Shown here: positions 1,529 to 55,950 of the stretch, piece after piece
How the letters are laid out: each line of letters begins with the position of its first letter
Position numbering within the stretch: position 1 is the stretch's first letter
Origin: Chloroflexota bacterium
GTDB taxonomy: Bacteria > Chloroflexota > Dormibacteria > Aeolococcales > Aeolococcaceae
NCBI GenBank assembly: GCA_005880985.1
Contig: VBIQ01000024.1
Span: 6,429-70,428 of the forward strand
Length of the DNA stretch: 64,000 bases
Reading direction: 5' to 3'
Notes under the pieces: generated by a model
Seen by the model: only the letters and a program-made list of their open reading frames with translations
The model's database searches: none
What the model was told of the DNA's origin: nothing
Position numbers and translations under genes: made by a program

Positions 1529-2460
1529 CGGTGGTCGGTGACGGTCAGGCGCCGCACGATGAGCACTCCGATGGTCGCAACCAGAGCGCAGGCGGCGAGC
1601 AGCGTCGAACCCAGCGGGGTGAGCGCCGCCTGGAGCGTGGTGGGGGAGGAGGTCACCAGCGCAATCGCGACCAGCGCCGCCAGCGCGGGGACCGCGGCCG
1701 CGACCAGTCGCGCCTCGGCCATGCGGGCGCGCGCGCTGTCGGTGGCCTGCTGCTCGTCCTCCAGCGCGGTGGCCAACCGCCGCAGCGCCTGGCCGGTGCC
1801 AACGCCGGCCTCGGCCGCGATCGCGTAGGTCACGGCCAGGCGGTCGAGACCGTTCCCGCTCTGGGGACCGCGCCGTTCACCGTGGTCGGCAACCACCGAC
1901 GCGATCGCGTTGGCGAAGGCGAATCCTGCCGCCTCGCCGAGCGCGATGCGCGCCACGCCAATCGAGAGGATCTGCTGGGCCAGCGGATCCTCCCTGGCGA
2001 CGCCGTTGCCCACCGCGCCGGCGAGCGCGACCGCCGCGCCGCATCCGCCGGCAATCTCGGCGGCGATGGCTCGCGCCACCACCAGCGCAGCGCGCTCGAG
2101 GGCGTCGGCGCCACGACGCCGTCGCAGCCGGAGCAGCAGCCGGCCTCCGACTCGAACCAGCGACAGCGCCCCACCGGCCGCGGCGACGGCCGACCCGGTG
2201 ATCACCAGGATGGCGGCGGCGACCGGCAGGCTGGCGAGCAACTGGGCGCGCCGCCATCGACTCGGCGACAGCGAGATGCCCGCGCAGCGCAATCGCAGGG
2301 CGAGCCGCCGCGTGCGCGGCCGGCGGTCGTAGGCGGCGGCCGCGCGCCGGCTCGCCACCGCCGCTCGGCGAAACCCGGCGGTCCAGGGAACGCCGTCGAC
2401 CAGCGCGGTCAGCAGCAGGGCGCCCGCGAGCGCTCGGGCCAGCGGCTGCCATGTGCTCAC
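1525..2460 (-). CDS. tadB: Flp pilus assembly inner-membrane platform protein TadB (T2SS-F domain)
   Basis: This is the C-terminal ~312 aa of track ORF 1525..3129(-). It has TM helices at both ends (LLLTALVDGVPW..., ...VPALAALVAIALV...ACALVATIGVLIV). A GTG start ([13 protein letters not shown]...) overlaps the cpaF stop (GTGA). The longer 534-aa frame run-through overlaps cpaF and is rejected. Confidence 0.6.
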   Translation of the reverse strand: MSTWQPLARALAGALLLTALVDGVPWTAGFRRAAVASRRAAAAYDRRPRTRRLALRLRCAGISLSPSRWRRAQLLASLPVAAAILVITGSAVAAAGGALSLVRVGGRLLLRLRRRRGADALERAALVVARAIAAEIAGGCGAAVALAGAVGNGVAREDPLAQQILSIGVARIALGEAAGFAFANAIASVVADHGERRGPQSGNGLDRLAVTYAIAAEAGVGTGQALRRLATALEDEQQATDSARARMAEARLVAAAVPALAALVAIALVTSSPTTLQAALTPLGSTLLAACALVATIGVLIVRRLTVTDHR

Positions 2461-3713
2461 CGAGACTCTTCGGCCGTCGCGAACAGCCCGGGAGGGAAGT
2501 AGACGCCCCGACCGGCCATGCGCTCGAGCACTCGCCGCGGTACGTCGCCGCAGGGCCGAAAGCACGCCCCGCCGTCTTCCACTGTGCGCCGGAAGAGGGG
2601 TGTGATGATCGGTTGATGGTCGGCGGTCGTGTCCAGCGCCGCCACCACCGCCACCGCACGGTCGCCGGCGCTGCTTCGCTCGCAATGCACCAGCAGGTCG
2701 AGCGCCGACAGAACCGGGGTGCGGAGCGCGTGCGCGGGCTGCGCCGGCCATGCCTGCAGGAGCAGGTCGTCGAGCCGCGCCAGTGCGTCGGCGGGACCGT
2801 TGGCGTGAAGGGTGGTCATCGAACCGGCGTGGCCGGTGTTCATCGCGGTGACCATGTCGGCCGCCTCCGGCCCGCGAACCTCTCCGATCACGAGGCGGTC
2901 GGGTCGCATCCGCAGGCTGTTGCGCACCAGGTGACGGAGGGTGACCTCGGCGGTGCCCCCGGGACGCGGTGGCCGGCACTCCTGCCGCACCAGGTGGGCA
3001 TGGTCGATGGCCAGCTCGGCGACGTCCTCGAGGACGATGATCCGCTCGCCGCCAGGCACCAGCGCGCACAGTGCCGCGAGCAGGGTGGTCTTGCCGGTGC
3101 CGGCGCCACCACTGATGAGCAGGTTGCATCGCCCCAGCACCGCGGCGTGCAGGAAGGCCGCCATCTCCGCGCTGAGCGCCTGCGACTCCACCAGCGAGCC
3201 CAGATCGAGACGGCGGCAGGCGGGACGCCGGATGGTCAGCACCGGGCCGTCGACGGCGATGGGCGGCAGCACCGCGTTGAGCCTGCTGCCGTCGGGAAGT
3301 CGCGCGTCCACCATCGGCGCACCGTCGTCGAGACGGCGGCCCGAGGCGAGAAGGAGACGTTCGATCACGGCGCGCACCTGGGCGCTGTCCTGGAAACGCA
3401 CGCCGGTCCGCTGGAGCCGTCCGTCGATCTCGACGAAGACGGCATCGGGGCCGTTGACCATGACCTCGGTGATCGACGCGTCGGTGAGCACCTCCTGGAG
3501 CGGTCCGTATCCGGTGAGCTCGTCGACCATCAACCGCAGCAGACGGTCACGCGGAGGACCCGCGGCGACGCCGTCGGCGCTCAGCCAGCTCTCGACCAGG
3601 ACGGTCACCGCCAGTGGTCGCTGTTCGTCGCCAAGCGGTCCCAACTCACCGTCGAGACCGACCAATCGCTCGCGATACCTCGGGAGCAGGGTGGAGAGAT
3701 CGTCGGCGGTCAC
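2457..3713 (-). CDS. cpaF: CpaF/TadA-family type II/IV secretion ATPase (Flp pilus assembly)
   Basis: Walker [14 protein letters not shown], Walker B/Asp box [11 protein letters not shown], the [15 protein letters not shown] motif and the His box [15 protein letters not shown] are all present. It sits between cpaB and tadB. Confidence 0.9.
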
Positions 3714-4393
3714 GAGCCGCCGCCACTGGCTGGGGGGTGCTCGCTCTCGGGAAGCAGCAGGACGCGGAGCGACTTCGCCGTTCCCTCGGCCGCCATGATG
3801 CGCAGCGCGGCGTCCCGCTCGACCTCCAGCCAGACGGTGGCCGTGTCCGATGGGGCGGTCGGGGCGCCGCCACCGCCGGCACCCGTGCTCGTCGAGCCCG
3901 GTTCAGCGGGGATGACGGCAACGACACGACCGGTGGCAACGGTTCGCGCGGAGACCGCCGCTGTCGGTGCGCCAGGCTCGCCCGCGGCGTCGATCTCGAC
4001 GTCGACACCGGCGAAGACGAAGCTGCCCACGTCGCGGCGTGCGACGCCGAGGGAGATCAGCCGGTGACCGGTGGCCAGAGGCACCGCGGGTGCCAGGGCG
4101 GCGGTGGGGATGCCGGAATCGGCTGGTAGCGCCACCAGCAGACGCCGTCCCTCGACGGCGCGGACGTCGTGAGCGAAGCCGTCCAGCAGGGGAGAGGCCG
4201 GCTGCCGTTTGAGGGCGACGTCGTCGGCGGCCAGGCGACTCAACGCCGGCAACGCGCGGGTGCTGACAACGACGGCGACCTCGGTCCCGGAGACCGCATC
4301 CGGACGGCTGCCCCCGCCGGCGGCGACCAGCAGCAGAGCCGCGCCGCAGGCCCCGACCGCCAGCGTTCGAAGCAGGCGGCGGGAGATGCTCAT
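3710..4393 (-). CDS. cpaB: Flp pilus assembly protein CpaB/RcpC-like (N-terminal TM anchor plus SAF-like domain)
   Basis: 227 aa with an N-terminal signal-anchor (LLRTLAVGACGAALLLVAAGG) and a beta-rich periplasmic region. Its start overlaps the cpaF stop by 4 nt, and it is first in the tad operon order. Confidence 0.6.
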   Translation of the reverse strand: MSISRRLLRTLAVGACGAALLLVAAGGGSRPDAVSGTEVAVVVSTRALPALSRLAADDVALKRQPASPLLDGFAHDVRAVEGRRLLVALPADSGIPTAALAPAVPLATGHRLISLGVARRDVGSFVFAGVDVEIDAAGEPGAPTAAVSARTVATGRVVAVIPAEPGSTSTGAGGGGAPTAPSDTATVWLEVERDAALRIMAAEGTAKSLRVLLLPESEHPPASGGGS

Positions 4394-4515
4394 GCCGAGG
4401 AGCGAGCTACCACAAATCCGGATAGTTACACAGATCAGTGGTGGTCGTCAAACGAAGCGGACCCGTAGCGGAGAGGTGGCGGAGGGCCCGGGGTAGAATT
4501 CGGCGCCTGCCGCTG

Positions 4516-4603
4516 GCCGAGGTGGTGGAATTAGGTAGACACGCTGCTTTGAGGGGGCAGTGAGCGCAAGCTCGTAGGGGTTCGAGTCCCCTCCTCGGCA
4601 CCA
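4516..4603 (+). tRNA. tRNA-Leu (anticodon GAG), class II with long variable arm, CCA encoded
   Basis: Acceptor stem GCCGAGG pairs with CCTCGGC, followed by discriminator A and CCA at 4601-4603. D-stem GTG/CAC with a long D-loop. Anticodon stem CTGCT/GGCAG with loop TTGAGGG (anticodon GAG). Variable-arm hairpin GAGC-GCAA-GCTC. T-arm GGGGTTCGAGTCCCC. Confidence 0.85.
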
Positions 4604-4736
4604 TGCAGCCCGCGGCACCTGGTCGACATGGCGCCGGCATCGCTCCCGTGCTTGCTTCGAGACTCGGCGCCTCCAGATCGCTTCGCATTCCGAACCTGAG
4701 ATCCCGTGTCTTACCGATCATGCTACCATCAGTAGG

Positions 4737-4988
4737 ATGCCAAGAGTAAAAGTCAGCCTCTCGCTTGATCCTCTTCTGATTCGCGACGTCGACGCCTATG
4801 TCGAGATGCATGAAGACTCTGATCGCAGCAAGGTCGTGGACGAGGCGTTGCAACTCTGGTCGGCTGCGCAGCAACGCTCAGCGATGGAGCTCCAGTTTGC
4901 GGATGAAGGTGAGGCGGATCCGGCGGAGCTGGATGACTGGCGCAAGGTGCGTCGTGGGTCGGCACGTCGCCGTCTGGGTCGCATCTGA
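4737..4988 (+). CDS. ribbon-helix-helix (CopG/MazE-like) antitoxin
   Basis: 83 aa. The N-terminal beta-strand plus two helices pattern (VKVSLSLDPLLIRDVDAYVE...SDRSKVVDEALQLW) is followed by an acidic C-terminal tail. It lies immediately upstream of a MazF-like ORF. Confidence 0.7.
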   Translation: MPRVKVSLSLDPLLIRDVDAYVEMHEDSDRSKVVDEALQLWSAAQQRSAMELQFADEGEADPAELDDWRKVRRGSARRRLGRI

Positions 4989-5362
4989 CTCGGCGAACCG
5001 CTCGGCGCGCGCTCCCTCGTCGGGGCGAGATCTGGTACGTCTACACGCCTGGCCAGCCCGATGATCCACACCAACCTCGGCCAGCGCTTGTCGTCTCGGA
5101 GAATGTTCGCAACACGATGCGCGACGACCTCATCGTGGTACCGATGTTCTCGCGCGGGCGGGCTGGGCCAACGCGCGTTTCCATTCCCGCAGGAACAGGC
5201 AGTGTTCCTGCGGACAGCATCGTCTTCTGCGAAGAGATCACCACCATCGACCGCGATTTCTTGGCGAGGGGCCCGATCGGACCGCCGCTCGATAGGCATC
5301 GCATGGACGAGATCGTCCGAGCGATACGCAGAGCCATCGGAGAAGTGGTGCCTGAGCCTTAG
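4985..5362 (+). CDS. MazF/PemK-family endoribonuclease toxin with non-canonical (CTG) start
   Basis: The frame reads ...LPRRGEIWYVYTPGQPDDPHQPRPALVVSENVRNTMRDDLIVVPMFSRG...IVFCEEITTIDRDFL, matching the MazF/PemK N-terminal RGxIW motif and the RPALVVS and VVPxTS motifs. Between the in-frame stop at 4934 and the conserved motif there is no ATG, GTG or TTG. A CTG at 4985 forms a CTGA overlap with the antitoxin stop. The track shows only the downstream fragment 5117..5362. Confidence 0.6.
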   Translation: MTRRTARRALPRRGEIWYVYTPGQPDDPHQPRPALVVSENVRNTMRDDLIVVPMFSRGRAGPTRVSIPAGTGSVPADSIVFCEEITTIDRDFLARGPIGPPLDRHRMDEIVRAIRRAIGEVVPEP

Positions 5363-5428
5363 CAGGGTGGGTGAAAGCAGAGCGCTCAAGCGAGCCAGTG
5401 TGAACCGTCCCGTGCAATCTCGGCATCC

Positions 5429-6232
5429 GTGGGAGGCAATCGTGAATCGGACGACGCGGCTGGCTGCCCGCTCCGCCCGACACCTCCACGGCGCGACGGC
5501 GTCGTGAATTGCGCGCCGGCGGATTCCAACGCCTTCGCGCGCCGACTGTTCTCGGGACTGCCGCGCCGCTACGACGCGCTCGCCGAGCTGTTGTCCTTCG
5601 GCCAGAACCGCCGCTGGCGCTCCGAGATGGTCGACCACGTGAGTGCGCAACCGGGAGGTGTCATCCTCGACGTCGCCACCGGCACCGCCGGTGTGGCCAT
5701 CCGCGTGGCGGAGCGGACGGGAGCCCGGGTGGTGGGGACCGATCTCACCGAGACCATGGTGCGTCAGGGCGCAATCAACCTACGGCGGCATCGGCTCACC
5801 GACCAGGTGCACCTGTTGGTCGGCCGTGCCGAGCAACTCCCCTTTGCCGACGGGACGTTCGATGCCCTGACCTTCACCTACCTGCTGCGCTACGTCGCCG
5901 ACCCGGCGGCGACCCTGCGCGAGATGGCGCGGGTCGTCAGGCCCGGCGGTACGGTCGCCAGCCTCGAGTTCATGGTGCCACCACGACGGGCGTGGCGCGC
6001 CCTGTGGTGGGTGTACACCAGGTTCGTGCTTCCCGCGGCCGGGCGCGTGTTCGGGCGGGAGTGGTATGAGGTCGGCCGCTTCCTCGGACCCAGTATCTCC
6101 GCGTTCTACCGTCGCCACCCGGTGCGCTCGGTCGTCGCCGCATGGCAGGACGCGGGGTTGACCAGGGTGGGGGTGCGCACCATGAGCCTCGGCGGTGGGC
6201 TCGTGATGTGGGGGCAGAAGGGTGACGACTGA
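5429..6232 (+). CDS. menG: UbiE/MenG-family SAM-dependent (demethyl)menaquinone methyltransferase
   Basis: The family N-terminal motif YDALAELLSFGQNRRWRSEMVDHV (YDxMNDxMSxGxHRxWK-like) and the SAM motif ILDVATGTAGVAI are present, with the acidic loop FADGTFDALTFTYLLRYV. The true start may be downstream of 5429. Confidence 0.7.
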   Translation: MGGNRESDDAAGCPLRPTPPRRDGVVNCAPADSNAFARRLFSGLPRRYDALAELLSFGQNRRWRSEMVDHVSAQPGGVILDVATGTAGVAIRVAERTGARVVGTDLTETMVRQGAINLRRHRLTDQVHLLVGRAEQLPFADGTFDALTFTYLLRYVADPAATLREMARVVRPGGTVASLEFMVPPRRAWRALWWVYTRFVLPAAGRVFGREWYEVGRFLGPSISAFYRRHPVRSVVAAWQDAGLTRVGVRTMSLGGGLVMWGQKGDD

Positions 6233-55258: not shown

Positions 55259-55950
55259 GCGATTCGGTTGCGGTCGTCACCGGTGCCGGACGGGGCATCG
55301 GTCGTGCCGTGGCGCTGCGCCTCGCCGCCGACGGGCACGCGGTCGTCGCCGCATCGCGCACCGCCGGCGACCTGGAGACGCTGGCGGCGGTGGCGAAGGA
55401 CGCGATCACGCCGCTCACCGCCGATGTGGCCGACGGCGACACGGCGCGGCGACTGCTCGCGACCGCGACCGCACGTGGGGCGCTGACCATCTGGGTGAAC
55501 AACGCTGCGGTGGTCGAGCCGCGCCCCTTCGCCGAGCTCGATCCGCAGAGCTGGGATGCGGTGCTCGACACCAACCTGCGTGGCGTCTATCTGGGGTGCC
55601 ACGCCGCCTTCAGGGCGATGAGCGAGCGTGGCGGCGGAGTCATCGTCAACATCGCCTCCCTCTCCGGGGTTGCCAACGTCGAGAAGTTCCCCGGGCTGAC
55701 CGCCTACAACGTGTCCAAGGCGGGGGTGATCGCCCTCACCGAGGCGGTTGCCCTCGAGGGCCGCGCCACCGGCGTGCGCTGCGTCTGTCTCAGCCCGGGA
55801 GCGGTTGACACCGAGATGCTGCGCCGTGCCGCTCCCCACCTGCGGCCCACCGTCACCCCCGAGGACGTCGCCGAGCTGGTCGCCTTCCTCGTCAGTCCCG
55901 CGGCGGCGCCGCTGAGCGGGGTCAACATCCCCATCTTCAGCAACGCCTGA
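55255..55950 (+). CDS. short-chain dehydrogenase/reductase (SDR) family oxidoreductase
   Basis: [12 protein letters not shown] Rossmann motif, NNAAV, and YNVSKAG (YxxxK). Confidence 0.8.

Follow-up and report, generated by a model that had tools for sequence, protein, structure and literature searches.

A MazEF-type toxin-antitoxin cassette from a soil Chloroflexota bacterium with a conserved CTG as the probable start codon of its toxin

Where does translation of a MazF-like toxin begin, when its reading frame offers no ATG, GTG or TTG upstream of the conserved domain? The question is raised by a toxin-antitoxin (TA) gene pair found in a 64,000 nt stretch of Chloroflexota DNA (assembly GCA_005880985.1, contig VBIQ01000024.1), referred to as a whole as the window. 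The host is an uncultured soil bacterium deposited as 'Chloroflexi bacterium', the nearest relatives of which are Candidatus Dormibacterota. Both genes lie on the forward strand. The antitoxin, an open reading frame of 83 amino acids paired with the toxin in nearly all relatives, extends from ATG 4737 to TGA 4986-4988, while the toxin frame ends at TAG 5360-5362. For the toxin, three disagreeing starts are at hand. In the JGI, ENA and Logan records it is called from ATG 5117-5119, yielding 81 amino acids, as seen in the called genes of L120 and L121; the NCBI record for this very genome, TMC47650.1, retrieved by exact-sequence look-up, starts at CTG 4937-4939 and contains 141; homology indicates CTG 4985, for a gene spanning 4985-5362 and a product of 125. 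The analysis reported here indicates that the last of these is probably the start in use.

The toxin frame is open from 4937, directly past an in-frame TGA (4934-4936), to the terminal TAG. Its product matches the PemK_toxin family (PF02452) over positions 1-108 of the 109 in the profile, with a score of 67 bits where 23.1 are required (E=2e-18); the match covers residues 12-117, counted from CTG 4985. The nearest solved sequences are M. tuberculosis MazF7, MazF6 and MazF9 and Bacillus EndoA, and the RPALVVS segment of the toxin aligns with RPAVVVS of MazF7. An AlphaFold model, based on 35 homologues, obtained a mean predicted local distance difference test (pLDDT) score of 84.3 and a predicted template-modelling (pTM) score of 0.79. 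The best Foldseek matches of this model are all MazF, EndoA or MoxT structures (E about 1e-8, template-modelling (TM) scores of 0.7-0.8, about 115 columns), and by the model the toxin has the SH3-like barrel fold of solved MazF toxins. It is described here as a protein of the MazF endoribonuclease fold, for which a sequence-specific nuclease activity is a prediction. The NCBIfam MazF equivalog NF007386 scored 19.1 bits, far below its cut-off of 120; judged by sequence, the toxin is a member of the MazF family and not an orthologue of E. coli MazF.

The first-pass annotation, prepared from the letters of the DNA alone, had noted the lack of an ATG, GTG or TTG ahead of the conserved motif, and the toxin frame indeed contains none of these before ATG 5117. 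Because the PF02452 match sets in at residue 12, the whole domain begins 33 codons upstream of this first canonical start. In the model, strands beta1 (residues 16-19) and beta2 (residues 32-38) precede residue 45, which corresponds to the 5117 codon, and 22 of 55 invariant or near-invariant toxin columns are also located upstream of it; a product started at 5117 would lose all of these and could therefore not fold as MazF. No NCBIfam match was obtained for the 81-residue product. CTG 4985-4987 overlaps the antitoxin TGA 4986-4988 in the form CTGA (4985-4988), exactly as had been proposed. Two other details needed correction. The R of the RGEIW motif, at 5021, lies 12 codons past CTG 4985 and 28 codons past the in-frame TGA, rather than about 10. 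The claim that CTG 4985 is the only plausible initiator was too strong, as a second in-frame CTG, the one chosen in TMC47650.1, stands at 4937, immediately after the stop.

In order to see which start the family uses, toxin homologues encoded in 39 genome loci and 80 metagenome loci were collected, and the 94 loci which were unique and had a complete 5' context were surveyed. In every collected locus, the candidate start codons were mapped relative to the conserved core, to the stop of the antitoxin and to the closest in-frame stop upstream. In 52 of the 94, the antitoxin stop and the toxin frame share an NTGA, N being G in 18 loci, C in 14, A in 10 and T in 10; the window CTG therefore sits at the usual start position of the family. 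For two orthologues, L123 (GCA_005883535.1) and L124 (GCA_049283735.1), the start annotated at NCBI is indeed the CTG of the CTGA overlap. A further relative, P0001, is a read-derived fragment, 97% identical, and has no DNA record.

In 31 of the 94 loci, the stretch leading from the in-frame stop to the RGE core contains no ATG, GTG or TTG. Twelve of these belong to the 14 CTGA loci, the exceptions being L001 and L003, which carry a GTG downstream of the CTG. Thirteen more have a CTG located 8 nt upstream of the antitoxin stop; the subgroup to which they belong (L009, L019, L040, L051, L058, L061, L064, L068, L073, L074, L076, L080, L084 and L091) bears this codon about 33 nt before the RGE core, two codons past the in-frame stop and in the other frame relationship to the antitoxin. 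In three divergent loci (L007, L081 and L090), the first codon past the in-frame stop is an ATC, produced by an antitoxin-frame Asn codon (AAT) and a C; it lies 42 nt before the RGE core, there is no other candidate start, and these toxins may start at ATC. L041 and L069 have a CTG at the same position with an unclassed junction, and one sequence, L087 (represented also by L088), is unexplained. In nine loci (L049, L069, L078, L019, L061, L074, L084 and L091 among them) the CTG is the sole near-cognate codon of the open leader, and in L016 and L047 the toxin frame opens just one codon before it. In a neighbour-joining tree of the toxins, the start-less loci form one large clade, inside which sporadic reversions to TTG or GTG occur, plus an independent CTGA case, L004.

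The CTG is conserved to an extent that relatedness does not account for. The C of CTGA is also the wobble base of the last antitoxin codon, and it does not vary among the 13 unique CTGA loci. The residue encoded there does vary (Ile, Ala, Thr, Arg or Pro), but the third base is C every time. For Thr, Ala and Pro, these genes most often use G as the wobble base (38-45%), which would produce GTG and was never seen. In the second subgroup, the CTG is made of a Pro codon, CCT, followed by G, so that its T is the wobble base; CCT is found in 14 of 14 loci, whereas it accounts for only 18% of the Pro codons elsewhere in these genes. As a control, four-fold degenerate sites of the toxin body were evaluated in the same 13 sequences per group, a choice that respects their relatedness. 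None of 37 sites in one group and none of 41 in the other is invariant, the mean frequency of the major base being about 0.52, whereas the silent bases of the CTG show no variation in either group, among 13 unique sequences each; the CTG is therefore conserved beyond ancestry. Moreover, relative to the antitoxin frame the CTG is displaced by -1 in one subgroup and by +1 in the other, an opposition which argues for initiation at this codon and against frameshifting.

The toxins themselves are under constraint. Pairwise ratios of non-synonymous to synonymous substitution (dN/dS) in the toxin body range between 0.05 and 0.2 among CTGA loci, where dS starts at about 0.3 and reaches saturation; when the window toxin is compared with that of L002, dN/dS is 0.07 at a dS of 1.2. 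Ratios so low at such a high dS imply that purifying selection has acted for far longer than the CTG state, and a silenced gene is therefore excluded.

The antitoxin is predicted to combine an N-terminal ribbon-helix-helix DNA-binding domain with a C-terminal tail in which W68 and R72 do not vary and which presumably binds the toxin. Searched alone, the window antitoxin gave no significant Pfam hit and no ribbon-helix-helix match. A profile of 22 family members, by contrast with the single sequence, matched the Rv0298 antitoxin (8u12) over residues 1-40 with E=1e-6, as well as NikR (E=0.009) and the CopG/Arc/MetJ antidotes and MazE9 (E about 0.05-0.08); RHH_1 was matched by 10 of the 22 members, all weakly, the best with E=5e-5. 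At the level of the family, the ribbon-helix-helix assignment is well supported as a sequence-based prediction, and the pairing of such an antitoxin with a MazF/PemK toxin, suggested earlier, finds support in PF02452, in the family profile, in the RHH_1 matches and in the toxin model. In 34 of the 39 genome loci an antitoxin homologue is the gene directly ahead of the toxin, and these loci have no other neighbours in common.

A predicted promoter/operator region (4709-4736, forward strand) precedes the antitoxin, and stays conserved in the relatives even though their flanks are in other respects unrelated. Within it, an extended -10-like box, TG (4721-4722) followed by c and by TACCAT (4724-4729), stops 7 nt short of the antitoxin ATG. 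Probable binding sites of the antitoxin are the repeats CTTACC (4710-4715), GCTACC (4722-4727) and, in inverted orientation, GTAGG (4732-4736). Of 75 unique upstream regions, 61 have the arrangement TANNNT, 6-8 nt, in-frame ATG or GTG; shuffled sequences gave 1.1 on average and never more than 4. A scan of 4400-5600 with strict sigma-70 and terminator definitions found nothing, and for this reason the promoter proposal is based on the conserved TGnTAnnnT box. Given the distance of 7 nt between box and ATG, and the conservation of this layout, the antitoxin mRNA appears to be leaderless, with the operator predicted to lie over the promoter. TA transcripts of M. tuberculosis have been reported to be predominantly leaderless (PMC8485053). 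The antitoxin is predicted to repress its own promoter, in view of its ribbon-helix-helix domain and of the conserved repeats over the -10 box, and to neutralise the toxin by binding, in view of its conserved C-terminal tail.

Taken together, the locus is likely to be a self-contained type II cassette of the MazEF/PemIK kind, 655 bp in length, whose toxin would be re-initiated at CUG 4985 after termination of the antitoxin. Transcription would start at the extended -10 promoter, overlapped by the short repeats to which the antitoxin probably binds, and give an mRNA beginning at or beside the antitoxin AUG, with no leader. Ribosomes would translate the antitoxin and terminate at UGA 4986-4988, and a small fraction of them would re-initiate, with initiator tRNA, on the overlapping CUG 4985-4987, producing the toxin of 125 residues. 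With a weak CUG and no Shine-Dalgarno sequence, toxin synthesis would be tied to translation of the antitoxin and would remain well below it in level. The leaderless transcript, the re-initiation at CUG and the effect on dosage are inferred from the comparison of sequences, while gene content, toxin fold, the missing canonical start, the conservation of the CTG and purifying selection on the toxin were established directly. The geometry of the junction is consistent with this scheme: stop and start overlap by 4 nt, there is no independent ribosome-binding site and no purine-rich motif is conserved upstream. A dependence of toxin translation on that of the antitoxin is predicted. Termination-reinitiation at 4-nt overlaps, also without Shine-Dalgarno sequences, is documented in bacteria (PMC10666635; PMC9955659). 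Of the two possibilities left open by the first-pass annotation, coupled translation from the CTG or a toxin silenced by a start-codon mutation, the comparative data favour the former, with CTGA present in 14 loci and the toxin under purifying selection.

Several observations weigh against this interpretation. CTG 4985 is not preceded by a recognisable Shine-Dalgarno sequence, nor does the group as such conserve one. In two close relatives, a GTG located between the CTG and the core (at -24 in L001 and -9 in L003) is a possible alternative start. L087 and L088, identical over the compared region, have no ATG, GTG, TTG, CTG or ATH within 50 codons upstream of the core, and an ATG in the third frame only; neither CTG nor ATC explains their start, and an indel, a pseudogene or a start of some unexplained kind may be the reason. 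A weak codon selected for low dosage and a codon kept as merely workable are inseparable by sequence, and the family makes use of all four NTG codons. Finally, the frame in this genome is open from CTG 4937, and TMC47650.1 is exactly the product of that start.

Among the alternatives, the one that survives best accepts the CTG as functional and denies that it is selected as weak: re-initiation would be nearly indifferent to the first base, and the C would reflect a G+C-rich wobble position and ancestry. We regard it as unlikely, though not negligible. ATGA, GTGA, TTGA and CTGA do all occur in the family, the third-position composition (C 0.35, G 0.35, T 0.17, A 0.14) is rich in C, and A/G and C/T states tend to group by clade, as transitions predict. 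A neutral first base is difficult to reconcile, however, with a C that remains fixed in all unique CTGA loci across saturated synonymous divergence and five different last residues, with the complete absence of the G that would be the commonest choice for Thr, Ala and Pro, and with control wobble sites of which not one is invariant. In the second subgroup, furthermore, the conserved base is the T of a rare Pro codon.

A start at CTG 4937 is a little less probable still. The toxin would then be 141 residues long, and its first 16 codons would overlap the C-terminus of the antitoxin by 52 nt; the peptide AQGASWVGTSPSGSHLTR is encoded only if translation starts there, while GEIWYVYTPGQPDDPHQPRPALVVSENVR marks the presence of the toxin as such, whichever start is used. 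Besides the open frame and the NCBI record, this view can draw on some close metagenome relatives (P0002, P0003 and P0006), in which an ATG or GTG occupies the homologous site and the toxin is called with 142 residues. The NTG at this position, however, consists of a wobble base and the TGG of the invariant antitoxin Trp68, and would be found in every member of the family, used or not. In L001, L002 and L124, three of the six closest relatives, an in-frame stop falls between the upstream codon and the CTGA, and that codon cannot be their start. The toxin-frame residues encoded between the two CTGs show little conservation, in contrast to the antitoxin frame, and CTG 4937 would be an internal site without the geometry of coupling.

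Two other explanations are very improbable, to about the same degree. A toxin gene that fell silent when its start codon was lost, so that the antitoxin alone remains, might be suspected from the absence of canonical starts before 5117 and from the 81-residue truncation given by standard callers; but the reading frame is intact and of full length, about 30 unique loci share the same state, all with intact toxins, and dN/dS with respect to the nearest CTGA relatives is 0.07-0.10 at dS >1, the CTG state being far older than decay would permit. The silencing mutation considered in the first-pass annotation is accordingly rejected. The second explanation is a frameshift near the overlap, fusing antitoxin and toxin, or translation from ATG 5117. 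The two frames do overlap, and 5117 is the first canonical start; yet no slippery heptamer occurs in 4937-4988, the CTG is conserved in both subgroups although the shift would have to be -1 in the CTGA one and +1 in the other, and a start at 5117 would sacrifice two core strands and the 22 conserved residues mentioned above. A sequencing or assembly error at 4985, with A read as C, has nothing in its favour beyond the oddity itself and is refuted by the CTGA of 13 further loci, which come from various genomes and metagenomes, and by the 100% identity of the locus in an ENA soil-metagenome scaffold and a JGI scaffold, two public assemblies possibly derived from the same samples and hence not fully independent.

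If toxin re-initiation at CUG 4985 is accepted, a broader reading can be put forward tentatively, as a possibility that falls somewhat short of being expected. A deep MazF clade of Dormibacterota- or Chloroflexota-like soil bacteria would have abandoned canonical toxin starts in favour of a near-cognate re-start on leaderless mRNA, the codon being actively held weak (C, never G). The re-start codon would be, with the same reserve, a CUG at the stop overlap, a CUG 8 nt upstream of the stop, or an AUC. In E. coli reporters, the codons that rank next as starts, CUG, AUC, AUU and AUA, reach about 1-2% of the AUG level (Hecht et al., preprint 10.1101/063800), and two of these, as CTG and ATC, are present in the start-less clade.

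The position of the pair downstream of a tRNA gene had led to the suggestion of an integration hotspot. A tRNA-Leu gene with anticodon GAG and an encoded CCA end is confirmed on the forward strand at 4516-4603 by both ARAGORN and Rfam (RF00005, 49.4 bits, E=2.9e-9). The TA pair does follow it, as had been stated, though hardly 'immediately', since 133 nt separate the end of the tRNA from the antitoxin ATG. An open reading frame in this gap (4603-4749, 48 amino acids) was considered as a gene; it has no Pfam hit, its DNA is absent from the relatives, and it was treated as non-coding. By sequence comparison the tRNA gene is a neighbour of the cassette and not a component of it, because DNA similarity to the relatives begins only at 4709. 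That similarity is confined to 4709-5363, i.e. 655 bp. The G+C content is 0.58-0.65 over about 4500-5400, compared to 0.70-0.74 in the flanks; this low value and the limits of the similarity fit a horizontally acquired minimal cassette, and the putative mobile unit is these 655 bp rather than a genomic island.

An island targeted to the tRNA is, in fact, unsupported: there is no att repeat and no nearby integrase, and the flanking genes are not common to any relative. The downstream repeat of the tRNA 3' end, which had been proposed as the mark of an island boundary, was searched for and nothing credible was found within the 64-kb window. The 25-mer and the 20-mer of the tRNA 3' end have no second copy at up to 3 mismatches in the 64 kb; the 14-mer gave 6 hits, above the 1.4 expected by chance, scattered over 15-54 kb on both strands. 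A local repeat search of 4400-5500 also returned nothing credible. Neither the CpaF and CpaB-like genes, nor the UbiE-type methyltransferase gene, nor the next open reading frame adjoins the TA pair in any of the 39 genome loci.

Other tRNA genes are found next to the cassette in some relatives. In L004, L018 and L048 the cassette directly follows a tRNA-Gln gene; this may reflect shared ancestry rather than repeated targeting, since L004 and L048 are close on the toxin tree (L018 is not placeable). L103 contains a complete tRNA-Gln(CTG) at 159-233 and, about 1.5 kb further on (around 1700), a fragment resembling a tRNA 3' end (GGTTCGAATCCTTCC...CCA), directly before the TA operator; L108 and L111 were noted along with it. 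From their sequence, these repeats look like the attL and attR sites of another element, inserted in the tRNA-Gln found ahead of the cassette in L004, L018 and L048.

In the window, the cassette is flanked by the tRNA-Leu gene and by a UbiE-type methyltransferase gene, the two TA genes being the only ones in between. Upstream of the tRNA, on the minus strand (2457-4393), lies a Flp/Tad pilus pair, composed of a CpaF ATPase and a SAF-domain CpaB-like protein; their stop-start overlap is a GTGA (3710-3713), as in an ordinary coupled pair. This CpaF is identical to an NCBI protein of a metagenome-assembled genome labelled 'Chloroflexi bacterium', and its next-nearest relatives, at 56-59% identity, include Dormibacteria. 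Among same-strand junctions of the window, a second CTGA is found at 55947-55950, between a short-chain-dehydrogenase-like reading frame and GTP cyclohydrolase I (FolE). An ATG is available to FolE 13 codons downstream of it, so that a CTG start is not needed, and this junction is uninformative about a lineage-wide use of CTG.

The closest known systems are the M. tuberculosis MazEF pairs with ribbon-helix-helix antitoxins (MazF7, MazF9/MazE9 and MazF6). MazF7 is the nearest solved toxin by sequence (E=2e-7), the fold is shared (TM scores of 0.7-0.8), MazE9 matches the antitoxin profile, and the antitoxin gene comes first and overlaps the toxin; identity to the window toxin is, however, only about 25-30%. 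Rv0298/Rv0299 (PDB 8u12, 8ypj) provides the best solved match to the ribbon-helix-helix domain of the window antitoxin (E=1e-6), but the match is limited to this DNA-binding domain and leaves the C-terminal, presumed toxin-binding tail unmatched. E. coli MazEF and the plasmid systems PemIK and Kis-Kid share with the cassette a PF02452 toxin, the gene order and, as predicted for the cassette, an autoregulated, coupled expression with antitoxin in excess. Their antitoxins have an AbrB/SpoVT-type fold rather than a ribbon-helix-helix, and their toxins start at an ATG placed behind a ribosome-binding site.

As regards coupling, the coat-lysis junctions of RNA phages fr and GA and the known 4-nt overlap pairs also have stop and start overlapping or a few nt apart, make the downstream gene dependent on termination in the upstream one, and require no ribosome-binding site (PMC10666635; PMC9955659); the documented re-starts are AUG, GUG or UUG, whereas a CUG is proposed here, and the coupling is predicted from sequence. 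Non-canonical toxin start codons have been listed, in a review of TA systems, as one way to hold the toxin below the antitoxin (PMC10643148). The cases of weak starts, such as infC with its AUU and the toxins with non-canonical starts, resemble the present one in that a near-cognate codon lowers the output. The two sources cited in that review for such toxins reportedly concern type I systems. The window toxin differs in belonging to a type II MazF clade, with a CTG or ATC conserved across deep divergence. No description of such a clade with a conserved CTG start was found in the literature searched, which is not proof of novelty; likewise, no conserved CTG start is known to have been reported for M. 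tuberculosis MazF6, MazF7 or MazF9, and none was found in the literature searched. There, the papers that bring a CTG start codon together with toxin-antitoxin systems are, by title, about other systems, and none links Dormibacterota to such systems.

On the comparative evidence, the cassette is an ordinary MazEF-type system with a real, evolutionarily conserved non-canonical toxin start. Weak translation of toxins and coupling to the antitoxin were both already known, and the case is an extension of them and not a new kind of system. Its usefulness lies mainly in annotation and as a test bed for toxin dosage. Gene callers restricted to ATG, GTG and TTG truncate or over-extend about one third of this toxin family, which distorts TA censuses in soil metagenomes. 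The family is, at the same time, a natural series (ATGA, GTGA, TTGA, CTGA, upstream CTG and ATC) in which the strength and geometry of the start can be tested against toxin dosage. If CUG re-initiation on a leaderless mRNA is true, the toxin would be expressible with neither a ribosome-binding site nor a canonical start, in dependence on translation of the antitoxin. Should the broader reading of the clade also hold, the identity of the start codon would be a hard-wired setting of the toxin:antitoxin ratio, and these loci would offer a natural case of CUG re-initiation in bacteria.

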